Assembly (NCBI GenBank): GCA_963514005.1 | Contig: OY740818.1 | Span: 10,788,001-10,852,000, forward strand | Length of the DNA stretch: 64,000 bases | Direction: 5' to 3' | DNA from: Raja brachyura | Taxonomy: Eukaryota | In this document: positions 1 through 63,870 of the stretch, piece by piece | Layout: every line of letters starts with the position of its first letter | Position numbering within the stretch: position 1 is the stretch's first letter | Program-made: the position numbers and the translations under genes | The notes under the pieces: generated by a model | Seen by the model: only the letters and a program-made list of their open reading frames with translations | Database searches by the model: none | Told to the model about the DNA's origin: nothing

Positions 1-1338
1 GTAGTCACTGTGGTGGATGTTTATGTTAAAATGTATTTGGTGTGTTCCGTTGCTTTTTATTTGTATGACTGATTTGACAAATTAAATTAAATTCCTCGTA
101 TGTTGCAAAACATACTTGGCTAATAAAGTATTATTGTGTGTGTAGTTAGAGATCAGGCAAGTGGCAATCTTTTCAGAAGCTTATGTAATTGAAGCAAGGC
201 ATTTCCATATAAATCGTTAGCCTCCATTGTGCTACAATGAAACCAGCTGACCCGTGAGCTTGGAAATTGAGTTTGAGCTTGAGGGCTGAAAGCATCTTTG
301 ATGTACATGCTTCCCCAAGCCGCATGAAGTGTTCTGATGTTTCACAAGACTGATTATTGTAGACAATAGATTTTGACCACCCATCAATGATCTGAGAAAC
401 CTTGTACTTTTTTTTTTCCCTCTGTTCTGTTTTTAATTGGGTTTATTGTACCTGATCATTCTAGACCTTGGATCATTGCCTAAACTCAATTCCACACCAC
501 GCCTCTGGACATAACTTCAGAAGTTGTGAGGGGGGCAACAAATTGGCTCTAGTCTCTAGTTCTATGTCCTGATTTTTCTTCCATGAGAGCTCCTATTGTT
601 GAACCATTTAAGAATGTTAGACAAATATAGATAGATAATATTTCAGCTTTTATTTCAGAAAAGAAAACTATGTAGTAGTATAGAGTACTGAAAACCAAAG
701 ATTATGCTGAAAACAAGTGAGGCTCTTCACAAATATAACCTGCTCTTGTTTTACAATAAAATAGAGGGGAAGAAACCCGCTTGATAGGTATTTTTTGTTC
801 TTTAAATATTTATCTTGTAATGTTCTTGGAGACATACAGTTGAGGTTGAATTTAATTTGCAAAGGGAAGTTTTCATTCTCGACATTATTTGGAGGTTGCC
901 TTTCAAACATGGGGACATGAAAGCTAGTACTTTAAGTCTGGGGAGGAGTCTGAAATCAACAAGCCATCTGGCAACAATGGCAATTGAATGAATAACTTGT
1001 ATGTTTCAGCTTGTAAGTTTCGGCTTGTAGGTTTCAACTTGTCAAAACAAACCAATTTTATTTTTATTTACTGTTCTTACTGGGAGGTGATTGATTAACT
1101 GCTTGCTATTCACAGCAACAGGTATCTACTGCAAACGTTGAGGGCTGTGTGAATTTTCAAATAATGGAGATTTCTTTAGGAATCTAATCGCTAAATTAAC
1201 TGGTGGAGTTATGATTATTGGGAAAATAGTGAACATTTACCACTGCTGATTCAAAACATCAAAAGTGGCAAATTGAATAATGTTATCTTGTTATTCGCAA
1301 GAAGTTGCTAACCAATATTTAAATGTTATAATCACTAG

Positions 1339-1486
1339 GCTGGATTGATTCATGCAGATATTGGCGAGTTTTTCATTGAGCCATTGGAGAAAGGCCAGAG
1401 GGCGCAGGAGGAGAAAGGTCGTGTTCATGTTGTGTATCGTAGATCATCTATCAAACAAACGGTATCAAAGGACCTCGATACTGAAG
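1339..1486 (+). CDS. adamts14: ADAMTS14-like internal coding exon (prodomain; phase 0 to phase 1)
   Basis: Acceptor tag ends at 1338 and donor gtattt starts at 1487. Translates [49 protein letters not shown]+g, matching the ADAMTS2/3/14 prodomain pattern AGLI...FFIEPLE.G...GR.HVVYRR. This frame is not in the ORF track. Branch-like tgctaac at 1306-1312. Confidence 0.88.
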
Positions 1487-1660
1487 GTATTTAAAGTAAT
1501 GCTTGCAGAAAATTTCATGATTAAAAGTAAATATCTTATTTCATAAATCCTTGGAATCTGAATGCTAACTTAGCACAATATAAATGTATAAGACAAATGT
1601 TATTAAATATTTGTATTCTGCATTATTTGCTTGTTTTATCCATCTGCACAGTTATTATTG

Positions 1661-2268
1661 TCAAGTCAAACAAACTTTATTGTGATTTAGAAATACATTG
1701 ATAAATGCAGTTCCAAACGAAATTCCGTTGCATTTGGCTCCCTGTGCGACACGATAATTAACAGAAGGATAAACATGGATAAAAAGGATAAATAGACAAT
1801 GGTGGCAGCCCATTACATGGTATTCAGGAGTCTAATGGCTCGTGGGAAGAAGCTGTTGCAGAACCTTGATGTTCTGCTCCTCAAGCTACGATATCTTTTG
1901 CCCGAGGGCAGCAGAGTGAACAGTCCGTGATGGAGATATGTGGGGTCTTTTATGATACTGCTGGCCTTAGACACGCAACATTTGGTCGCAATATCCCCGA
2001 TTGAGGGGAGAGAGGTCCCGATGATTTTTTCCGCTGTCCTCACCACTCTCTGCACGGACTTCCAATCAGAGGCTTTACAGTCCCCAAACCAGACAGAGAT
2101 ACAGCTGGTCAAAATACTCTCTATGGTGCCCCTGTAGAAAGTGGTGAGGATGGGATGGGGGAGGTGAGCTCTTCTCATCCGGCGCAGAAAGTGCAACCGC
2201 TGCTGCGCTCTCTTAACTGTTGATGAGATGTTATTCGACCAGGTCAGACTGTTAGTGATCTGCACCCC
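1661..2268 (-). mobile_element. Rex1/Babar-type non-LTR retrotransposon, 5'-truncated 3' fragment
   Basis: ORF 1813..2265 (AQQRLHFLRRMRR...FYRGTIESILT.CISVWFG...SFFPRAIRLLN) is the typical post-RT C-terminal region. It is followed by a 3' UTR with aataaa and a short ttgac-type tail. Confidence 0.85.
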
Positions 2269-2874
2269 CTGTGATAATCTGCTTTTTTAGTATTTTGTTT
2301 GAAGACCTGTAATTTCTCTTCTAATTTAATACCCTGTCTAGTGTTTTGTCAAATGTTAATTATCCAGGAAATCAACCATTTAAAAATTATGTGACTTGTT
2401 TAGCTAAAATAACTTGCTGATTTAATCTGTGTTAATCTATATTTCAATACAACATTTGTGGTATGCTGAGTTCTTGGAGAGAACATCTGCTTTATTCATA
2501 TTTGAATGAGGAAAGGAATTATAAGATGAGCTTTCTTGACTTTCACAAAGTCTCCTTTGCCTCCAAACCCATTCTCATCTAATTGCACTTTAAATCAGTG
2601 CCTTAGGATATTTGTGTATATTAAAATCAGGTTGTACATACTAAGCTCGGGGAGAATAGTTGAGGCTGTTGTTCAGTGGAATTATAACATTCTGAATAGT
2701 GTGTATTGCTAAACCAGGTGTTTCTATAAACTACACATTCAAAGACATGTAGCACTTCATTACTCAAGCTTAAAGCTATTTTCTTCATCAAACTCTGTTT
2801 GAAGCCCATGAAAGTAAGATTGATTACACTAAGGACAATGTAGTTCTTGAGACTGTATGAGGAAAAATTGTCTT

Positions 2875-3360
2875 CAGTATGATTATTTATTGTCATGTAC
2901 ACCAGGGTGCGATGAAATTCCTAGTTCACATGAAGCTCACAGTGCAAACTCTGTACATACAGTTGTTATAAATACAATGACCAATGCAAAATGGCAGAAT
3001 GCTGCAAGGATGTGGCACAAAATCAGAGGAGGGCAGAACTACAAAACTGAATAACAGGATGAGGTTAAGTTAAGAATGGCAGCGCCTCTGTGAATGGGCT
3101 GCGAAATAAGTGATTGGTTCAGAAGCCGTGGGGAAGAAGCTGTTCCGAAGTCTGGATGTCCTTCTTGACTCTTCTCCCAAATGGCCGAAGAGAGAAATGG
3201 GAATAGCCAAGGTTCAATGATCCTTGACGATACCTCTAGCATTTCTGATGCAACACACCGTGAAGATAAACTGGATCGAAGGAAGCGATGTGCATGTGAT
3301 GCACGGGACTGTGTTCAGCACACTATACAGGCTCAGCCTGTCAAATTGAATTGCCATTGG
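2875..3360 (-). mobile_element. Old Rex1/Babar-like LINE fragment
   Basis: Degenerate ggggaagaagctgttc...ttctccc...tccttgacgat...ggactgtgttcagcac motifs are shared with the 1661-2268 element. Confidence 0.5.
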
Positions 3361-3426
3361 AAGCACAGTGGTAGAGTTGCTGCCTTATAACACCTGAGAC
3401 CCTAGTTCCATCCTGACTATGGGTGC

Positions 3427-3569
3427 TTCTTCTTCTTCTTGCATATGGCGTGCACAGCCTAAAGTTGTAGGACACCTTGTTCTATTTGATCTTATTTGAT
3501 TGTGTACGCCGGGTTGATTGCAACCTTCACGTGGTCCGCCCTGTTTTGACTAATGCAATCTTCCACCCC
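3427..3569 (-). mobile_element. Short non-autonomous retroelement (HDV-like-ribozyme-headed family), copy with inverted ribozyme core
   Basis: 11-bp TSD actatgggtgc at 3416-3426 and 3570-3580. The minus strand starts GGGGTGG and ends in a (GAA)n tail. Homologous to 13678-13810. Confidence 0.88.
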
Positions 3570-3686
3570 ACTATGGGTGCGATCTGTATGGAGTTTGCAT
3601 GTTCTCCCTGTTATCTATGTGGGATTTTTCCAGGTGCTCCCGTTTCCTCCCACATTCCAAACACGTCCAGGTTTGTAGGTTAATTA

Positions 3687-7917: not shown

Positions 7918-8205
7918 GGGTACACAAAAGGCTGGAGAAACTCAGTGGGTGCAGCAGCATCTAAGGAGCGAAGGAGATAGGCAACGTTTCGGGACGAAAC
8001 CCTTCTTCAGACTGATGTGAGGGTGGTGGTGGGGGGGGGGGGGAAGAAGAAAGGAAGGGGAGTTAGGAGGCACAGAGGGGGGGCAGTTAGAGAGGAGGTT
8101 ATGAAACTGTCTCCGTAGGGAAGAGGAGAACTTCTTCAAAGTAGGCATACCTTGAGGAGATATCGCAGTGGAGGAGACAAAGTGTTAAAGAAGGAACTGC
8201 AGATT
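7918..8205 (-). mobile_element. Penelope-derived short element with hammerhead-like core
   Basis: acacaaaaggctggagaaactcag...caacgtttcgggacgaaacccttcttcagac and aagaaggaactgcagat. The minus strand reads CTGAAGA...GAAAC. Confidence 0.7.
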
Positions 8206-11733: not shown

Positions 11734-12309
11734 CGTTAATTTACAAAGTTTTGCATTTAATTCAATGGCACTTATCACAGTTCATTACCATTTATTATGC
11801 ATTGATTTGCAAATAATTTGATCACTTAATATTAGAATTAGGAGCCTCCAAACAAAACATTTGTTAAATGCTGATTCATAAAACAAACCACAATACCAAT
11901 CTGGGAACCTATCAGAATGTTTTAATATCAATAACTCACTTGCATTTACTGGACATTTATGTCATTTACCAGGACAGTAAATGATGAGAATTTAATAATT
12001 TACGTGTCCATTTATTTTAACATATAACTTCAATAATGTATTCCACCATTCCTTCATGTGACCTACAGGTTATAACCATGCAACATATAACATAGAACAG
12101 TATAGTGCAGAAACAGGCCCTTCTGCTAACAATGTCCATGCCGAACATACTTCCAAGTTAAATTGCTCAGTCTGATTTGTGGATGTTGCAGCATCATCAA
12201 CCACATCAGATAAATGGAGGAAGATATCGCTCAGTCAAGCTCATGGTTGTGTCGGAGGTTCTGGAATAGATTCATGGAATAATGTAATTGTATTAAGTAA
12301 TTTAGAGAA

Positions 12310-12513
12310 TGCAGATTGGCTATTTCATACTAGCCAATTATAGTGTTTGTTGGTAGTGACTCCACCTACTATGTACTTCATATTATCAAGAGCTTGCTTA
12401 CGCTAGTTAGAATGACTAGCAACTCGGAGATGTGATGACTGCAGATCCTTGCTGTATGTAGATTTAATAAATATGTGTTGTATCGTGATGTGTGTTCGAG
12501 TCGACTCATAACA
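12310..12513 (+). repeat. 5' LTR
   Basis: TG...CA termini, aataaa. About 16 mismatches in 204 nt versus the 3' LTR by manual alignment. Confidence 0.95.
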
Positions 12514-12531
12514 TGGTGTCAGAGAGTGAAT
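12514..12531 (+). promoter_or_regulatory. Primer binding site, tRNA-Leu-like
   Basis: tggtgtcagagagtgaat directly follows the LTR. TGGTGTCAG is complementary to the ...CUGACACCA 3' end of tRNA-Leu. Confidence 0.75.
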
Positions 12532-13677
12532 CTCCGCTCATGTTTATCAGGTTTTATTTTCTTCTGATTATTTTGTGTGTTTTTATCTCAATCATGGCAA
12601 ACTCGTGTCGCCGTCCTTTGATTCTGACATTGCTGAACGCTGGGGTCTTTTCGAGCGTGACTACGCTCATTATGCTTGCATCGTTCATCGGAATAACCCC
12701 CCCCAAGGTGCGTGCCCCTGTACTGCTTAATTTGGTGGGACCTGAAGCAATGAATCGTGCTGACAACTTCACTTTTGCTCCTGCTGTTTTAGAAGATGAC
12801 CGTCAGGTCAGAGTGCCTGCTGAAAAAACCAACGACCTTGCAGTTTTGATCAGAAAGTTCAGAGAGCTGTGTGAACTGCCATTTAACCATATAACAATCA
12901 CAGCACAGATTAATTAATTAATTTACACATTAATTACCGCCCTCTAACTACATTATTGAAAGGGCCAAGTTCTATGCTCGTGTACAGCAGGTCGACGAAC
13001 CAATTGAATGATTTATCGGCGGCTTGAAGCACATGGCTGCACGCTGTCGCTTTCGTGATTTACGGGATGAACTCACCCGGGTTAAGTTTGTGGGACGAAT
13101 GCTTGACAACAAGCTATGAGGTAAGCTCCTTCACAACGCTGATTTAACCCTAGAATAAGCAGAGCATGCTTGTCGTATTTCTGAGATAATGTCTCCCCAC
13201 ACTGACTCTGTGTCCTTCAGTCAACCTTCACAGCATAGTGTTAATCTTACAGACCTCTCCCCTTGCAACCCCCGCACAGGGTCTGAAGTTCGTTGTCAAA
13301 ATTGGAACTATTTCCATGCTACGGGTTGTCAATTCTGTGCTGCCTATAGGAAAACCTGTAATTTCTGTAAGAAATTAAATGACTTTGCTCGGTGTTGCTG
13401 TTCCCGTGTGATTCCTGTAGCTTCAAGGACGAGCCTGCACCTGCTTCAACATGAGTTTACTGATAATGACTTCCAAGAGCCTGACTCGCAATCCCCCGCA
13501 CCGCTCAGAGAGTACAGATACTAGTTCTGCCATCCACTCTCTCCTCCCTTCGTCTAACAATCAACTTGACCCTGAGGTAACCATGTTTTGGGAATAACAG
13601 GCCTTTGATCGCAAAGATAGATACTGGCGCCGAATGCAAATCTCATTAAGAGAGTTTTTTAAAAATCCGTAATGTTG

Positions 13678-13810
13678 CATCTTGCATATGGCGTGCACAG
13701 CCTAAAGTTGTGAGACAACTTGTTCTGTTTGATCTTCTGTTTGTGCACGCCAGGTTGATTGCATTCGTTGAAACAGGGTGGACCACGTGAAGGTTGCAAT
13801 CTCCCACCCC
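13678..13810 (-). mobile_element. Short non-autonomous retroelement nested in the Gypsy protease region
   Basis: TSD atccgtaatg(t/c)tg at 13665-13677 and 13811-13823. Same family as 3427-3569. Confidence 0.88.
13757..13810 (-). ncRNA. Predicted minimal HDV-like self-cleaving ribozyme (54 nt)
   Basis: Minus strand: P1 GGGGUGG, J1/2 GA, P2 GAUUGCA, P3 ACC, L3 UUCACGU, P3' GGU, P1' CCACCCU, GUUUCAA, J4/2 CGAA, P2' UGCAAUC. All three helices pair fully, with a G1-U wobble. Confidence 0.82.
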
Positions 13811-16419
13811 ATCCGTAATGCTGAACATATTGATAAGGCCTCCGCAACGCTTCAGGCTTACGGGGGAGAAGTACTACACCCACTTGGACAAGCTGATTTA
13901 AAGTGCACCATTGACAGACAGACCCATACCGTATCATTTTATATTGCTAAGGGAGATTTAGAGAATTTGCTCTACGTTCGGCACCCCCTTCGGTCGATAC
14001 AAATTTCTGAGAATGCCCTTTGGCATCAATTCCGCCAGCGAAGTTTCCCAGCACACTATGGAACAATTGTTTGCAGGGTACCCATGCGCTATCATTGTTG
14101 ATGATATTCTCGTTTACGGACACGATCTGGCTGAACATGACGCCAATCTGAATAAAGTACTTGACAGTGCCATATACATTTATCTTAAACTCAATCCCCT
14201 GAAGTGCAGGTTTCGAGTTCCAGAGGTTACTTACTTCAGACATGTGTTCACAAGTGATGGTCTCAAACCAGACCCGTCAAAAACTTTAGCTATCAACGAA
14301 ATGTCTGTTCCTGCTGACGTTGTGAGCTTACAAAGGTTCCTCGGAATGGTCAACTACCTGGGTAAGTTTATTCCCAACCTCAGCAACATATCTGCCCCCC
14401 CTACGAGAACTGTCACACAAGGGCGCGGCATGGTCCTGGTAGTGCCAAACAGCTCTTGACACTCTCAAATTGCAGCTGGCTAGCACAGCTACTCTCACCT
14501 ACTTTGCTTTGCAATTACCAGTAACTCTCACCTGCGATGCGTCCCAGTGTGGGCTAGGCGCAGTGTGCCTACAGACCACTACCGATGGGATTTTCAAGCC
14601 CGTTTCATACACCTCCCGTACGCTGACTGACACTGAACAGCGTTACGCCCAGATAGAAAAGGAACTGCTCGCAGTGGTTTTCGTCTGCACTAAATTCAAC
14701 GACTTTGTATTTGGAAAGTCTGTGACTACCGAGACTGACCACCAGCCGCAGGTCACCGTTTTGAACAAACCCATCCATGCCGCCCCAGCATGACTACAGC
14801 GAATGATGATGCAACTACAGCGATTTGATTTCAACATTGTCTACAAGAAAGGCAAAGTCATGCACATAGCAGACACGCTATCTGGAGCCCCGCGTAAAAC
14901 TAACGAAGAACAACTCTCCGAACAGGACCAATTCTCAGTAATTTAGGTTTCGTTTGTGCCAACTGACTGTTTGAGCAGCCCAGCAGAACACCTGGCTACT
15001 AATGAATTCTTACATTTGCTGTCTGCACTTATCTGGCGCGGCTGGTTCTAATAAAGAACACAACACCCCGCTCGAGATACACCCATACTTCCTGGTTCGC
15101 GATGAACTAGTATTACAGGACAGAATTATTATCAAGGGCCACAAGGCAGTGGTCCCAGCAGCCCTCTGGGACAAATTCTTTGACGACATCCACAGGGCCC
15201 ACCCTGGCGTGGAGGCAACCCTCCAGAGGGCGCAAAGCATGTTTTACTGGCCCGGAATGACCAAATACATACTTGAAAAAAACGAAGTTTGCGCCGTCTG
15301 CAAAAGCCTGACACAACATCAGCAAAAGCAGCCTCTACTGCCGCACCCAGTACCCCCTCTCCCATGGTCCACGTTAGCCACCGACATCTTCGAATGACAT
15401 GGGAAACACTATCTGGTCCTTGTACTCTTACTCTGGCTGATTCGAAATCGACTTACTTCAAACCACTACTTCTGAAGCAGTAATCGAAAAGCTGCAGCGC
15501 CATCTCTCCATGCACGTCTCCCCTGCACATATCCAGTCCGGCAACGGCAGACAGTTCACCAGCAAGCTTTTAAAAACTTTGCACAACAATGGGACTTTCA
15601 ACATATTACCAGCAGCCCTGAGTTCCCACAGTCCAACGGACTTGCCGAACGCGCGGTCCGGAGTGCAAAACAACTCATGGAGCGGTCATACCTTGCCAAA
15701 TCAGACGTGTATCTGGACTTGCTCAACCTAAGGAATATTACGCGAGATCCCATACTGGGTTCTCCAGCCCAACGACTGATGTCTCGCCAATCCCATGCTC
15801 CTCTGCCCACAAGTTTGTTCCCCAACTGCAGTTCAGAAGCAACTACAATCCAAACGTGAAACGCAGAAACGCTTCTTTGACAAGTCCAGTAAGCCACTTT
15901 AGCCTCTCGCTCGTGGACAAGTAGTCCGTCTCCAGACAAACAAGGGCTATGCACGTCTGGGACAGATCTACGGCTCTGCCAAAGAGCCGCGATCTTATCT
16001 GGTCGAAGCGGATGGAGCCATCTGCAGACGCAATCGTCAACATATCCTTCTAATGAAGGAACAGCATCCTGCGACTCCGTATCCTGATGTCTTGCGTTTT
16101 GTATACCCTCCCACAGTTGGTCCCGCTTCCCCACTGCCACCTATCGTTCCCACTGCAGTCTCCCCGCGGCATTTACCGCCTAGCTTGCCTATCTCACCTA
16201 TCTCATCACCCTCCCTGCCGTTCGGGCCGTCGGTCGTTTCCCCGTTTCCCTCCCCGGTTTTCTTCTCCAATGAAAGGAGGTGAGGCAGACTCGTACTGCA
16301 CACAGGCCAAAAGGGTTTGCAGGCCACCCATTAGATATGGCGATTTTGTGTAATTTTGCAAATGTATTATTAACATCCCTCCTATATTGCTTAGCCACCC
16401 ATGCTTCTTTTGTTTCTAC

Positions 16420-16428
16420 AAGGAAGGA
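16420..16428 (+). promoter_or_regulatory. Polypurine tract
   Basis: aaggaagga immediately before the 3' LTR. Confidence 0.7.
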
Positions 16429-16632
16429 CGTAGATTGACTATTTCATACTAGCCAATTATAGTGTTTGTTAGTAGTGACTCCGCCTACTATGTTCTTCAT
16501 ATTATCAAGAGCTTTCTTACGCTAGTTAGAATGAATTGCAACTTGGAGATGTGATGACTACAGATCCTTGCTGTATGCAGATTTAATAAACATGTGTTGT
16601 ATCATGATGTGTGTTCAAGTCGACTCATTACA
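16429..16632 (+). repeat. 3' LTR
   Basis: Direct repeat of 12310-12513. Starts CG (mutated TG) and ends CA. Confidence 0.95.
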
Positions 16633-33042: not shown

Positions 33043-33239
33043 CCTTGAAATTTGGTATTGGTGATCTTGCAAACTCTTTAGACATCATTGAGGAGAAACT
33101 AAATCATCCAGCACGAAAACGAAGGCATGCAAAGAAAGATGACTACAACATTGAAGCTCTATTGGCAGTAGATGATTCAGTTGTTCGATTCCATGGAAAA
33201 CAGCATGTTCAGAACTATGTTCTGACCCTAATGAATATT
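33043..33239 (+). CDS. adamts14: ADAMTS14-like coding exon (prodomain end, furin site, start of metalloprotease domain; phase 1 to phase 0)
   Basis: Pyrimidine-rich tract with aag ending at 33042, and donor gtaagt at 33240. Translates (A)[69 protein letters not shown] at 33114-33125. Joins in frame to the upstream exon (g+cc = Ala). Confidence 0.95.
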
Positions 33240-36140
33240 GTAAGTGGCCTTATATACTATTTATTGTATTTTATTCTTCCTTCATTAGTAACAATTGAAT
33301 TTTGTGTCACCCATAAATCTGTAATTTGAAGTTAGTGTACGTAACATTTATCATTTTCTGTATTCTCATTGAATCTGGAGTTGTACAGTGGGATGATATC
33401 ATGAACGTGTGAATTTTCCACTCTAGGCTATTCTAGCACAGTCATTAATTAATGTAAATGGTATTGTACCTCCACAGTGAGGGATGAGATAAAACAGCTG
33501 AACAGATTATGTGCATAGCTGTCCATTTCATTGAGTAATGTTGAGAACGATGTGTTCAATTATATATATTTATTTAAAAATACCAAGAAGTTCATCAAAT
33601 ATGCACAGCACAAACAGACATTATCATCACAGACCTGCTGTTTGTAAATTTTGCAGTTTGTAAACATGTTTGCACTTTGGGTTTTCCATTATACTTTGTG
33701 CCAATGTACCTTGCATGAAAGAAAACTGGTAACTCAGCGTGTTACTGGTAACACGAGAAAGGCCAGGAGGCTTGAGGAAGCAAAATAGAATGTTAGCAGG
33801 ATTAGGGCAAGGTTTGGATGCCAGCAAGTACCGTGAATCTGAGGCCTGCATTCACTAGGTGGCTACGATTGTAAAGACTGCAAGCTTGGTGATATGGACG
33901 ATAAGTGCAATATAAATGGTAAAGGAGCATCCCCGGGTAAAAAACAAGTTCTGTTTTTCCGTACAATTTTGTCCCCATGTTAGAAAATAGACGAGTATAA
34001 CTTGATATAATAACCATACCTCCATAGTATTGCAATGAATGTCATCAAAAGCACATTAGACTGATGTGAATTAATCTTCTGGCCCAGCCTGTCATGAGGA
34101 AATTTGTTCCATGATTTACTAAAGTCCATTTAGAATGGTTTCCATTTTGAAAACATCCACATCATTTTCATTACCTCTTCAAGCGCACACATCAAATTTG
34201 TGAGAGAGTACCTCCTCCACAAAAAGCTGTATTGACTGATTATGATCCAATTATGATGGTCTATTTATATATTTAAAACACCCTCCTGGATATAATTAAT
34301 AGATTCTGCCCCATCTGACACTAAATTTCTAATCAGCAGCAAGTCTGGGTACATTACACAAGATCCCTTTATTCAAACCATTGATAAAATGTAAGGATGA
34401 CATCCAAGTATTGTTTCTACCTAGAAATATTTAGCACTATAGTATTGCACTTATTGGCTGATTAGAAATATTGGATTTGTTATAGCTAATCACCAGTTGT
34501 GAAGTAACATTATGATTTGTACATGCTCAAGCGAAAATCAGTTTAAAGCTAGATTACCTTCTGTTACCCTGCTAGTTAGAGATAACTTGGATTATCTCTT
34601 GGGTTACTTTTCATAGAATTATGTTTGAATTTAGTTCATTTTTTGTTATTGTGGCATTCATTTTTTTTGAAAAATGGCCTGTCGGCAATAACCAGTTAAT
34701 GTATATAATGCTTGAATTGTAAGAAGTTTTGTTTCACTTTTGTTCTAATTATTCATAAAGTCTTTGCAAAATTACCAGTATCTCCTAAATATTGTCTCTC
34801 TGGCCTTTTCCTCGCCAGTTTTGCTCATTTTACCATAATGATCAATAAGCCTGTGTATGTGCCAGTAATATTTAGTTTTATTGTTCCACTATCATCAACT
34901 GGTGACAGGATACAACTGGATGATTGCTTGTCTAGTATTATTGAGAATGGGCCAGATTTTTGTTTTGCCACTTTGTGTTCAAGACTGAATGCATGCTGTC
35001 CAGTCACTACTTATAAACACTGCAGCTTAGTTTGTGATCTTTTTTTTCCTTTGAGTGCCACAATGTAATGTACGTTACTTTGGTGAACTGCTAAATTCTC
35101 AGCTTAGCTTCAAATCCTAAATTCTGTCCCATTTCCAGCTCTATAATATTTTCCTGCTGTTTCTGTTCCAATTTTAACCTGTGCCTATGGAAAATGTGAA
35201 GTGTTAACGATTCCAAACATACAATAATTTTATTATTTTTTATTTTATATGCCTTTCTTTACTCTGTTACATCAAATTTTCCAGTGAATGAGTCTCATGG
35301 TATGCTAAATTTTGTATGTTTACTCATCCATGAAGCACCTTGGAACTATTTACTGAAAATTGCATATCTGCGCTGAGATTGATGGGCAGTGCAGCCGTTT
35401 GAGAACAATACTGGATGGTGAAGTAAGCTGGCTTGTATCTGCATTGTAAAATGCCTTACAAATACTAAATTAATCTCCTGATCTTTTAGTTTAGTGTTTC
35501 CGTTCACTAGGCCTGATAAGTTTGCCCTTTAAAGTTAAAAGTTACTCAGTGCACAAGAATGCACAAGAATATACAATTGTTGCAATACTTTATGTTTTTA
35601 AAACTTGGTCTCTTTTCCATCTGCGCCACTACATAATAAAATATTGTTCTTGAAGCTCCATAGAAAGATGGTAGCATGGATGGAATCTCCTGAAATATAC
35701 TAGTACGTCGAATTGGGGGGACCCAATTGAAGCATCTGATTTTTCAGTGGCAGCAATTAGCAAAGAAAGATTAATAGTAAAAAAATGCCCAGAATTTGAC
35801 AGGGTGAGATATTCAATTGCTCTTGCATTATCTTATTAAATCTTTCCTGCAGTTTTCTAAAAATGCGATCTAATGTAGGTTAGCAAAGGAAATAGGGTCT
35901 GAAAATGTCATCTTTAACCTCTTGGGTACAGCTTGTGTGGTGTGCTTTAAGATTGTGTTCCCTAGTAAATAATGTAATTAGGTTGCCTAGTGCAACAATG
36001 CCCTGTTTACATTCCAGCATACTAAGTCATTAATGTGTTTAAAATTGCACAGCTGCTCTCATTTAACCTCACAGCTATGGACTTCACATCTAGCCCTTAA
36101 AGGGCCACTTGCAGAAATAAACCAGTGTTGTTCCAACTAA

Positions 36141-42808: not shown

Positions 42809-43004
42809 GGGTTACACAAAGAGCTGGAGAAACTCAGCGGGTGCAGCAGCATCTAAGGAGCGAAGGAGATAGGCGACGTTTCCGGTCGAGACCCTTCTTC
42901 AGACTATCTCCTTCGCTCCTTAGATGCTGCTGCACCCGCTGAGCTTCTTCAGCTTTTTGTGTAACCCTCGATTCTCCAGCATCTGCAGTTCCTTCTTTAA
43001 CACA
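42809..43004. mobile_element. Penelope-derived fold-back mini-element
   Basis: 63-bp inverted arms (42809-42871 / 42905-42967, 3 mismatches). 13-bp TSD caaaactagccat (42796-42808, 43005-43017). Confidence 0.85.
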
Positions 43005-43433
43005 CAAAACTAGCCATAGTTGGGATCTGCCACTAGTTTGAGCAAACTCTTGCTGAGGCCTGCATTCACATTACTCAGGAACAAATGGAAACACGTCTCT
43101 TTGACAAGCTATCTTCATGAGAAAATGAGATGCCCATAACACTCAGAATATCCAAAGTTTTAAAGCCAGAAAAAATAAAGTTGTTTGCTGGAGGGGCATG
43201 TAACTACCTCCACCTTAAAGGTAAATGGCATGCATGTTCCGAAAAATCTATTTGACTTTGAGAATTGCCACCAGCATTTAAGTTTCTGTATGCTTTATAC
43301 CATTCTTGAATGTCATCAATGTCATAAAGTTTGAATTATCTGAAGTACATCTCAAACTCATCATGGAAAGATCGATTAAGTATTTAGCCATCAATAATGT
43401 AAGCCAACTATTTTACTTAAGCAAACTTACATA

Positions 43434-44615
43434 CAGTGCATTCAGAAAGGATTCACACCCCTTTACTTTTTCCACATTTTGTTACGTTACAGCCTTATTT
43501 TAAAATGGATTAAATTCATTTTTTTATCATCAATCTACACACAATACCCCAGAATGAAGAAGCAAAAACAGGTGTTTAGACATTTTTGCAAAGTAATTAA
43601 AAATAAATAACTGAAATATCACATTTACATACGTATTCAGACCCTTTGTTATGACACTCAAAATTGAGCTTAGGTGCATCCTGTTTCCATTGATTATCCT
43701 TCAAATGTTTCTACAACTTCATTGGAGTCCACCAGTGATAAATTAAATTGATTGTACATTATTTGGAAAGTCACACACATGTCTACATAAGGTCCCACAG
43801 TTGACAGTGCATGTCAGAGCAAGAACCAAGCCATGAAGACGAAGGAATTGTCTGTAGACCTCGGAGACAGGATTGTGGAGAGACACAGATCTGGGAAAGG
43901 GTATAAAACAAGTTCTGCAGCATTTCAGGTCCCGAAGAGCACAGTGGGCTCCTTCATTCTTAAATGGAAGAACTTTGGAGCCACTTCATAGAGCTGGCCG
44001 TCCGGCCAAACTGAGCAATCGGGGGAGAAGGGCCTTGGTCAGGGAGGTGACCAAACACCCGATGGTCACTCTGACAGAGCTCCAGAGTTCCTTTGTGGAA
44101 ATGGGAGAACCTTCCAGAAGGACAACTATATCTGCAGCACTCTGCCAATCAGGCCTTTATGGTAGAGTGGCCAGACTGAAGCCACTCCTCAGTAAAAGGC
44201 GCATGACAGTTTGCCAAAGGGCACCTAAAGGACTCTCAGACCATGAGAAACAAGTCTGATGAAACCAAGATTGAACTCTTTGGCCTGAATGCCAAGTGTC
44301 ACGTCTGGAGGAAACCAGGCACCGCTCATTACCTGGCCAATATCATACCTACGGTGAAGCATGGTGGTGGCAGCATCATGCTGTGGGGATGTTTTTCTGT
44401 GGTGGAAACTGGAAGACTAGTCAGGGAAAGATGAATGGAGCAAAGTACAGAGATCCTTGATGAAAACATGCTCCGGAGCATTCTGGACCTAAGACTGGGG
44501 CGGAGGTTCACCTTCCAACAGAACAATGACTCAAAGCACACAACCAAGACAACACAGAGTGGCTTTGTGACAATCTGTGAATGTCCTTGAGTGGCCCAGC
44601 CAGAGCCCGGACTTC
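43434..44615 (+). mobile_element. Tc1-like DNA transposon, 3'-truncated, frameshifted transposase
   Basis: ta|cagtgcattcagaaag left end. Transposase from ATG 43833 (MKTKEL...GRPAKLS...[10 protein letters not shown]...[16 protein letters not shown]...QQNND...WPSQSPD). Confidence 0.92.
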
Positions 44616-55171: not shown

Positions 55172-55907
55172 ACCACTCTACCATAAAGGCTTGATTGGTG
55201 GAGTGCTGCAAATATAGTTGTCCTTCTGAAAGCTTCTCCCATCTCCACAAAGGAACTCTGGAGCTCTGTCAGAGTGACCATCAGTTTCTTGGTCACCTCC
55301 CTGACCAAGGCCCTTCTCCTCCGATTGCTCAGTTTGGCCGGGCGGCCAGCTCTGTGAAGAGTCCTGGTGGTTCCAAAGTTCTTCCATTTAAGAATGACAG
55401 AAGCCACTGTGCTCTTCTGGGCCTGCAATGCTGCAGAAATTGTTTTATACCCTTCCCCAGATCTGTGTCTCGACACAATCCTGTCTCTCGGAGGTCTAAT
55501 TCCTTCGTCTTCATGGCTTGGTTTTTGCTCTGACATGCACTGTTAACTGTGGGACCTTATATGGGATTATGAGTGTACAAATTATGTACACTCGATTTAA
55601 TTTCCCATGCGTGGACTCCAATCAAGTTGTAGAAACATCTCAAGGATAATCACTGGAAATAGGATGCACGTAAGGTCAAGTTTGAGTGTCATAGCAAAGG
55701 GTCGGAATACTTATGTAAATGTGATATTTCAGTTATTTCTTTTCAATTTGCAACAATTTCTAAACACCTGTTTTCGCTTCTTCATTCTGGGGTATTGTGC
55801 GTAGATTGATGATTAAAAGGAATGAAGTTAATCCATTTTAAAATAAGGCTGTAATATAACAAAATGTGGAGAAAGTGAAGAGGTCTGAATACTTGCTGAA
55901 TGCGCGG
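55172..55907 (-). mobile_element. Tc1-like transposon left portion (same family as 43434-44615)
   Basis: Reverse complement of 43434-44172. ORFs contain MKTKEL... and KWKNFGTTRTLHRAGRPAKLS. TA at 55908-55909. Confidence 0.9.
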
Positions 55908-56780
55908 TATTTATTTCTGCTGACTGGATAGCTTGCAACAAAAGCTCATCACTGTACATTGCTACATGTGTACAATAAACTTAACTAAACAGTTACCAAA
56001 ATTAATTCACAAAGTGGAAGATGTACACATTCCCAAAAGCTGAGAATATTTAAATGTTTGAGGATGTAGTGCTCATCTTACTAATATCAATTATTTTTTA
56101 AAGAATGTGGCATCTATAATTGACAATAACTTCTGATTTGTTGAACATGGGTATTTGTCCCCAACAGCTCTCACCAACGTAGAAAGCATTTTATCAGGGT
56201 TCATCACAGCATGATTTAGGAACAGATCCATCCAAGACCACAAGAAATTGCAGAGAATTCTGGTTGCAGCCCAGACCATCACACCAATACTTGGGTATAC
56301 TAAAGGCATACTTGCGCACTAAAGGATAAGTTACATACTGACCCTAATTGTTTTGCTCCACACCTGAAGTGCAGTCCTGTGGATATGAGAACAATTAAAA
56401 GCATTCTTTGTTGCCGTTGGTCGAGAGCACAGCCGTTGGTTAAGAGTATTGGGCTATGGAAGATATCATACAAGCCCGACTCTATTCTTACCCAATGTTT
56501 ATATGTATGCACTGAATAGTACCAGTTTGTAAAACGTAGGGACACGGAAATAAATGTCAACACCACATTGCTGGTTCAGTGTAGATTGGAAGAGGCTGTG
56601 GACTGAAGCTGGGAGAATGCCCCTCAGTACAACCTATTCAGCAACCAAAATGTTCATGCATTTTCAGATTAATTTTGGAAACTCCATTTCCTGGGATTTC
56701 TGGCAGACGATATCCCTAACTCCACCCTTTTCTTTCCAACAGTGCGTTAATTGAGGACTCGTGCAATTATTGTAATAAGC

Positions 56781-62215: not shown

Positions 62216-62299
62216 GTTGATGAAATCTACCATGATGAATCGTTAGGTACGCACATCAACATAGTTTTGGTCAGGGTGATTATGGTAGGCTACAGACAG
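62216..62299 (+). CDS. adamts14: ADAMTS14-like coding exon (84 nt, metalloprotease domain; phase 0 to phase 0)
   Basis: Acceptor ttttattgtttcag and donor gtgagt. Translates [33 protein letters not shown] and MVGYRQ are ADAMTS14-type, whereas ADAMTS2/3 have VNEIY and a different ending. Confidence 0.95.
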
Positions 62300-62445
62300 G
62301 TGAGTCGGCAACATCTCAAAATGTGAATTATTTATATTTCTCAAGCAATTACACAATGTTAATTGGTTCTAAAGAGTTATTGATGATTTAGCGCACCTCG
62401 TAGGAGCTGTAACTCTCATATAATCACCTACTGTATAATAAGACA

Positions 62446-63340
62446 TAAGATGGTGGCGTGCCCGACGTTTGCGGCGGCCTCTCTCAGTGGAAATGCAGTG
62501 CTTTTGTGTGTTATTGGAGTGAGTGGTGTGATTGCAAAGTGTGTGGAAGGAAAGTGTATGTATGTGCGACAGTATGAGCAACAGTTTCTGTTGGACATCC
62601 GTAACAAAGTTTCTTGTTACGACAAACACTTGTTGAGCATCCTGGGCGAGTTTGGACTTCTACGCCGTTTAGGCCCAAGGAAGGCCGCGACTGTACCTGG
62701 AGCAGCACCGGTTGAGGAATCACCGGAAGCGGTGTGACAGGTTGCGGAAGTGGGGCAAGTGCGGAGGAGTCCACGCTAGGCTAATCACTAATCCACACAA
62801 ACCAGCAGTGCCTACACTCAAGTTGGCAAATGTCCGCTCCCTCGACAACAAGATGGATTACATCAGAGTGTGGAGAGCTTCTCAATGTAGCATGAGGAAC
62901 TGCTGTGTCTACGTTTTCATGGAGACCTGGCTGAACCAGAACATCACGGACGCTGCGATCCAGCTAGAGGGGCTAATACTACACAGAGCTGACAGAGTAG
63001 ATTCGCTAGCCGGTAAGCTAAGGGGAGATGGCCTGGCTGTGTACGTCAACAGATCGTGGTGCCGGGATGCCGTGGTGGTTTCCACTTACTGCTCACACCA
63101 CGTAGAGTTAATGACTGTGAAATGCCGACCCTTCTACTTGCTGAGCGAGCTGACGGCAGTCTTCATAACAGCCACCTGTGTACCACCGAGCGCGGACATG
63201 AAGGAAGCTATGACAGAACTCTACAACATCAGTGAGCAGCAGAGGGGACATCCCGATGCCTTCTTCATGGCAGCTGGGGATTTCAATCAGGCAAGTCTCA
63301 CATCTGCTCTGCCTAAATTCTACCAGCATGTGAATATTGC
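62446..63340 (+). mobile_element. Rex1/Babar LINE 5' region with APE endonuclease (3' part missing)
   Basis: aagatgg-type 5' start. LANVRSLDNKMD...FMETWL...RADR...LAVYVN.SWC...KCRPFYL...AGDFNQA.L...LPKFYQHV. Confidence 0.88.
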
Positions 63341-63870
63341 CTCTACACCTAACGCATTATTCTCTGGCGTTTCCACCATAAATCCCATCTTCCCGTCCCA
63401 ATCCCTTTCTGACATGGAGATCACCCTCTTCGCAACTCCTAGGTTCATTCATCCCTTCCCATCCACGCACTTCTCTTCACATTCCCTTACGACCCCCCTG
63501 CCCTTCGCTTGCTGCATTGCTAGAGTAAGACCACATGCAAATTGGAAGGACAGCACCTCATCTTCCTCTTGGGTAGCCTACCCGACAGCATTAACATTGG
63601 ATTCCCCAATTTCAAGTAATATCCCCCATCACCTCTCTATCCTCTGCCTCTTCCCCTACACCAGAACACACACATTTCTCCCACACTTGTCACCCTGCTC
63701 CTTTGCCGTCCTTCTTATGTTCATCAACCACTGTCCCCCCATTTCCCTCGTTCCCCTCTGCTTTGTCCCCTTCCACCCATATTCCTCCCTCCGGCTTCAC
63801 ATTTTGTATTTCACTCTTTATATCCCTATCAGTCATCCTTTTATCTCCTCCTTATTTCCAATGTAAAGAA
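63340..63870 (+). mobile_element. Penelope-like element remnant (GIY-YIG C-terminus plus pyrimidine-rich tail)
   Basis: ~63530-63619 translates TCKLEGQHLIFLLGSLPDSINIGFPNFK*, typical of the Penelope GIY-YIG end (KLEEQHLIF.LG.L.P.G.N..F.NF). Confidence 0.7.

Follow-up and report, generated by a model that had tools for sequence, protein, structure and literature searches.

The predicted self-cleaving ribozyme at the head of a short retroposon in the genome of Raja brachyura has repeatedly had its 31-nt core turned around in place, exactly between two 7-bp inverted repeats, and we put at roughly three in four the probability that this recurrent micro-inversion hotspot reflects a known form of DNA template-switch mutation that disables the copies it strikes. 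Inverted cores match the tails of the copies that hold them, and where the retroposon is carried within DNA-transposon hosts both orientations are found at one and the same site.

Two copies of one element in opposite states

The window (the whole stretch of 64,000 nucleotides analysed here) holds two copies of the retroposon, each of which, read on the minus strand, is a 134-nt element with a target-site duplication (TSD), made up of a structured 5' head, a 3' hairpin of 11 bp and a (GAA)n tail. The features that matter for the argument are as follows, with the core structure assigned from Rfam alignments.

3363..3685, plus strand: older interspersed repeat, presumably tRNA-SINE-like, the insertion target of the flipped copy
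3416..3426, no strand: TSD, 11 bp, 3' copy
3427..3569, minus strand: flipped copy of the 134-nt ribozyme-headed retroposon, (GAA)n tail included
3427..3440, minus strand: (GAA)n tail
3447..3510, minus strand: element 3' hairpin, with 11-bp arms in intact copies; internal control, 0 loop flips
3516..3522, no strand: P2 arm, inverted repeat, GATTGCA; one inversion boundary
3523..3553, plus strand: inverted 31-nt core, comprising P3, L3, P3', P1', G, a short loop replacing P4, and J4/2 (CTAA)
3554..3560, no strand: P2 arm, inverted repeat, TGCAATC; other inversion boundary
3563..3569, minus strand: P1 5' strand GGGGTGG, the element 5' end
3570..3580, no strand: TSD, 11 bp, 5' copy
13678..13810, minus strand: normal-orientation copy, with core 13764-13794 and P2 arms 13757-13763 and 13795-13801
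13665-13677 and 13811-13823: TSD of the normal-orientation copy, 13 bp

The initial annotation had described a 31-nt segment between the inverted 7-mers GATTGCA and TGCAATC in both copies, turned around in one of them, and this description is borne out: identical 7-nt arms enclose 31-nt cores at 3516-3560 and 13757-13801, the core at 3523-3553 agrees with 13764-13794 at 27 of 31 positions as a reverse complement and at 5 of 31 when read directly, and the left flank and the P1 flank are collinear, aligning in the same direction in both copies. The plus strand of the flipped copy reads, as had been proposed, P2 (3516-3522), P3 (3523-3525), L3 (3526-3532), P3' (3533-3535), P1' (3536-3542), G (3543), CTAA (3550-3553) and P2' (3554-3560), with no proper 5' P1 strand ahead of it, there being zero 7-mers in positions 1-3510 of the window that pair fully with P1'. 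On the element strand P3, P1' and J4/2 are gone, and the P1' that would partner the P1 5' strand at 3563..3569 now sits on the opposite strand, so that self-cleavage of the element strand would be lost. The core has its own substitutions relative to that of the other window copy.

That second copy has landed in an LTR retroelement (12306-16632), within its pol region; the retroelement has 208-nt direct repeats that are 92% identical and Pfam matches to reverse transcriptase, RNase H and an integrase zinc-binding domain. Elsewhere in the window, fragments of a Tc1/Sleeping Beauty-type transposase occur as two copies in inverted orientation (43420-44256 and 55173-55921), and a 397-aa open frame at 62673-63863, with a weak endonuclease/exonuclease/phosphatase match, is probably a LINE fragment. 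At 42809-42967, 64-nt inverted arms from a common interspersed repeat, 95% complementary and 31 nt apart, cause spurious microRNA matches in Rfam and may themselves be a template-switch product.

On the plus strand, exon peptides at about 1340-1500, 33050-33240 and 62220-62310 carry motifs that we take to be ADAMTS-type, the gene being presumably ADAMTS14, and both copies of the element lie between such exons. A Pfam scan of 149 of the 171 plus-strand open reading frames found no ADAMTS domain, and a PDB search gave zero matches. Neither the motifs nor the name ADAMTS14, to which the flipped ribozyme had been proposed to be sense, are confirmed by these searches.

The element and its predicted ribozyme

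By sequence and alignment, the element head is predicted to be a CPEB3/HDV-like ribozyme. A 101-nt stretch of one copy (L090) matches the Rfam CPEB3 family (RF00622) at 19.2 bits (E=0.0032), which misses the gathering threshold of 35 bits, and the HDV ribozyme of F. prausnitzii gives a weaker alignment to the head. Such matches appear only on short stretches, and an Rfam scan of the whole window with E up to 1 found no ribozyme. In the alignment, L3, the end of P1' and J4/2 agree with the CPEB3 consensus, and across 86 full-length genome-wide copies, the 5' strands of which were preset by the search pattern, the pairs of P1, P2 and P3 are kept in nested order. The first P1 pair is G-T in 81 of the 86, which is to say a G-U at the cleavage site, and the putative catalytic C of J4/2 is likewise kept in 81 (the pattern allowed C or T), with the base that follows it being the most variable (G 31, T 35, A 17, C 3). 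Two-sided covariation is absent among the 86 copies, the P1 change being one-sided only (T-G 50, T-A 34), and we ascribe the lack of compensatory changes to the youth of the family. Minimum-free-energy folding was left out of the evidence because it cannot represent the pseudoknot. HDV-like ribozymes cut at the first base of P1, and new insertions of the element start at that very base.

None of the ribozyme copies whose 3' neighbour is altered (23 in all) runs into a LINE, none of the loci examined has an odd tail pointing to an autonomous LINE, and because no autonomous partner was found the element is left without a clade. In one copy (L116) the tail continues into the inverted 3' end of another. 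The listings of literature searches contained no paper devoted to this retroposon family or to inversion of a ribozyme core.

How often the core is flipped

When copies were collected genome-wide with matched patterns of equal stringency and scored for core orientation, 37 were flipped and 13,700 normal, a frequency of 0.27% per site, and backwards control patterns gave 0 matches; the orientation of the 13.7-kb window copy is thus the normal one, and flipping is not confined to a single copy. Copy clusters can inflate such family counts, one example being contig C1 at 14.56-14.95 Mb, where about 20 near-identical copies apparently lie within a larger tandem duplication. A search for the exact flipped 3' junction returned 26 matches, comprising 24 flips and 2 normal-orientation copies with the 5' arm extended. 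The union of searches holds 47 flipped places, to which L348 and L361 bring the total to 49, or about 45 independent-looking events (two pairs are local duplicates, and three places are in one host). Most of these places have a TSD of their own, and 42 of 44 flipped copies have near-intact 5' ends. The initial annotation had left open a choice between a one-off, hairpin-mediated micro-inversion and a recurrent flip; with 49 flipped places in four subfamilies 'one-off' falls away and 'recurrent' holds, and so do the hairpin-mediated micro-inversion and the element strand's proposed loss of its core.

The younger subfamily flips less (5/5,711 vs 32/7,989, p=3e-4) and shows less CpG decay (13% vs 26%, p=0.025), yet any effect of age on flip rate is confounded, because the portion of copies assigned to the younger type came out differently in two counts (42% and 22/90) and its extended arm duplex is weaker (mean -8.6 vs -9.5 kcal/mol). 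Set against a genome-wide sample of normal copies (90 of 130 matches), flipped copies show no significant excess of age (CpG decay of 31% vs 22%, p=0.10), and their non-CpG divergence is lower; a comparison in which they appeared older than the copies at the start of contig C1 (p=0.004) was dropped in favour of this sample. Core deletions accompany 8 of 34 flips outside host H2 (described below) but, among about 13,650 normal copies, only 462 (3.4%); counted the other way, flips make up 8 of the 470 cores that are at least 2 nt short and 26 of the remaining 13,211. Deletions like those in flips also occur in unflipped copies, and the excess may mean either that shorter spacers flip more or that the flip is error-prone. 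The whole core has been deleted between direct repeats in the arms in 2 copies only.

Independent events and their timing

Whether the flipped copies form one clade or arose repeatedly was a test that the initial annotation had suggested, and it comes out for repeated origin. Flipped copies are spread over four tail subfamilies with no clade of their own, and 21 changes of state are implied by a tree built from the tails of 39 flipped and 42 normal rows (leaving out 8 flipped and 28 normal rows with unparsed tails). When 44 flipped and 160 normal rows are compared, pairs with at least two rare variants in common number 3/946 for flipped-flipped, 34/7,040 for flipped-normal and 93/12,720 for normal-normal comparisons, and core type agrees with tail type (8/9 vs 5/35, p=6e-5, counts by eye). 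Since the flips fall in four subfamilies, require 21 changes, show no excess of sharing and carry cores that agree with their tails, we read them as repeated events in cis and not as a lineage.

Two families that we take, from their end features, to be Helitron-like bear directly on when the flip occurs: H2 has Helitron-type ends on both sides and H1 the same kind of 5' end. Both are non-autonomous and carry the ribozyme retroposon as cargo (for H2, loci L153-L182, L066 and L067), H2 having taken a copy that lacks 10 nt of the core and has a shortened tail to at least 56 places. In H1 the insertion is present in 2 of 30 fetched host copies, at the same site, once flipped and once normal (L183, L184). 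In H2 there are 3 flipped and 53 normal copies, all with the 10-nt deletion, which already removes P1', and a G>C change, so that the flips retain the H2 deletion and were templated in cis. Because H1 and H2 each hold one insertion both ways, flips are possible in DNA after insertion and without an RNA step. These hosts are the sole source of direct post-insertion evidence and may pass through single-stranded DNA; for stand-alone copies we infer the same timing. The tree does not place the three H2 flips together, yet all lie on one contig, and an AU test does not reject a single origin for them (p=0.43); a 20-fold higher flip rate in H2 was set aside because the three may be one event.

A probable template-switch route and the P2 hotspot

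Inversion of a spacer between inverted repeats is a described outcome of template switching or microhomology-mediated break repair in three reports (PMC8755829, PMC8604942, PMC8794818); in the first, human-chimp microinversions span 17-33 nt and are all flanked by inverted repeats, and primate microinversions are mostly 'born pure'. The 31-nt core falls inside this primate range, whereas the deletions that accompany 8 of 34 flips outside H2 fit such purity less well. A DNA polymerase that replicates an already inserted copy, or repairs a break in it, would jump from one 7-bp P2 arm onto the opposite strand, copy the spacer backwards and return at the other arm, leaving an inverted core by way of what would be two template switches; break repair invading the opposite arm could give the same product. 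That product would be a dead copy, in that P1' and the catalytic strand would leave the element strand and the transcript would be unable to cut itself to the exact 5' end typical of new insertions. Arm homogenisation, a known by-product of template switching according to PMC8604942, is seen as perfected arms in 2 of 26 loci; in L044 and L047, both of normal orientation, the 5' flank has been converted so that the P2 inverted repeat is longer. By a rough reckoning, 0.27% per site, set against a divergence of about 5% per base, agrees to within a factor of ten with the primate-rate expectation for a 7-bp repeat. In three further normal-orientation copies (L255, L355, L362) the second P2 arm is the site of a short insertion or local duplication, which suggests that synthesis often slips there.

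The other inverted repeats of the element serve as internal controls. Loop flips of the 3' hairpin number 0 against 3,586 matched normal copies, where about 9.7 would be expected, and 0 in an estimated 9,600 copies under a wider pattern; the P1 loop gives 0 in an estimated 2,000-3,800 copies where its 6-bp repeat is perfect, and the P3 loop gives 0. P2 is therefore a specific hotspot within the element, and the same zeros count against a generic inverted-repeat mechanism, which predicts flips elsewhere in the element. Likely contributors are the imperfect extension of P2 to 11 bp (-9.8 kcal/mol, where the arms alone reach -7.4 and P1 reaches -7.3), its near-palindromic arms and a spacer of the usual size, that of the 3' hairpin being 44-46 nt. 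Loop length as sole determinant was rejected, the 22-nt P1 loop having given 0 flips, and the notion of the core as a special break hotspot found no support, the 3' hairpin loop being deleted in about 7 of 100 listed copies (by eye).

Alternative explanations

Flips could instead have been made, for the most part, during retrotransposition, with a nascent second strand that ends in the first P2 arm priming on the element RNA at the second arm, the core then being copied backwards before synthesis returns to the cDNA. Such a route would confine flips to the 5' ribozyme, with none in the 3' hairpin, as is seen, would predict cores in cis, intact 5' ends (near-intact in 42 of 44) and TSDs, and could add deletions. 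It cannot, however, explain H1 and H2, in which one insertion occurs in both orientations, gives no reason to expect fewer flips in the younger type, and leaves P1, equally near the 5' end and with 0 flips, unaccounted for; we regard it as unlikely, although it is the chief competitor of the reading that we favour. That a few flipped source copies were themselves retrotransposed, founding a minor flipped sub-lineage, is suggested by L049 and L050/L051, which have in common an unusual core junction absent from normal copies (3/3 matches flipped). The spread over four subfamilies with matching diagnostics, the failure of flipped pairs to share more rare variants than normal ones, and the exact 5' ends of flipped copies, which would presumably require a working ribozyme, make this highly doubtful.

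At the locus in the window, an assembly or sequencing error deserves a hearing because none of the short-read contigs from seven runs bridged it, other copies having swamped the alignment. Yet the assembly has 48 other flipped places, a flipped junction is spanned by contigs from two other organisms (one over 3512-3560 with a short overhang, the other over 3516-3569), and the core has substitutions of its own, so that a local error is very unlikely indeed. The initial annotation had also raised the possibility of a flip/flop isomer acting as an on/off state, that is, a programmed, reversible switch of the ribozyme of the recombinase type. Precise and recurrent boundaries, near-palindromic arms and the flipping of P2 but not of three other inverted repeats are what such a switch might produce, and still we find the idea scarcely credible: the flipped state makes up only 0.27% of copies, forms no lineage and is rarer in the younger type, flips occur in H2 copies with already broken ribozymes, many come with deletions, and segments under 33 bp are argued, in PMC8755829, to be unable to loop for recombinase synapsis. 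A template switch in already inserted DNA remains the reading that we prefer.

The opposite strand as a possible trans-acting ribozyme

Through each flip a ribozyme that cleaves itself in cis could conceivably become a natural trans-acting one encoded on the other strand, an idea that we consider a long shot. Engineered trans-acting HDV ribozymes (PMC4908430) resemble the flipped opposite strand in having P2, P3, L3, P1' and J4/2 and in lacking a 5' P1 strand and J1/2, and cleave more slowly than cis forms. The flipped strand differs from them in that it arises by mutation, is without P4 and has only a hypothetical substrate. The plus strand of the window contains five sites that pair fully with the flipped P1', all downstream and the nearest at 8020. 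If the idea were true, the 5' leader of the family itself, or sites like it in host RNA, would supply the 7-nt target; at the present locus the ribozyme would be made from an ADAMTS-type pre-mRNA that holds the five pairing sites; and the genome would have at least 49 loci of trans-cleaving ribozymes derived from a sequence-specific inversion hotspot, which would amount to a route to natural trans-acting ribozymes.

Relation to known systems

The head of the element has the same order as CPEB3 (RF00622) and the HDV-like ribozymes with which non-LTR retrotransposons begin, namely P1-P2-P3-L3-P1'-J4/2-P2', and as in the latter the 5' end of an insertion is the first base of P1; compared with the CPEB3 ribozyme, P4 is cut down to a few bases. 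Ribozymes at the 5' ends of non-autonomous LINE derivatives, a match for our element, are described in PMC5786205 and PMC6765202. The bipartite non-autonomous LINEs of the RTE, Ingi, Vingi and R2 clades, treated in the first of these, are like the element short and non-coding, with a 5' ribozyme, a 3' hairpin, a microsatellite tail and TSDs, and differ from it in that no autonomous partner has been found for ours.

With the spacer microinversions of PMC8755829, PMC8604942 and PMC8794818, the flips have in common the exact reversal between short inverted repeats, recurrence and arm homogenisation. They differ in that a single site is seen here in about 14,000 near-identical copies, with a per-site frequency of 0.27% and internal negative controls, that about a quarter of flips come with deletions, and that what is turned around is the predicted core of a catalytic RNA. 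The stems of an RNA structure can serve, within a mobile element, as hotspots of DNA mutation that would inactivate the element carrying them. The inversion mechanism is already known, and the retroposon family is an unusually clean natural reporter for microinversion: the P2 frequency, set beside three repeats in the same element with zero flips, makes it testable which arms and spacers promote it.
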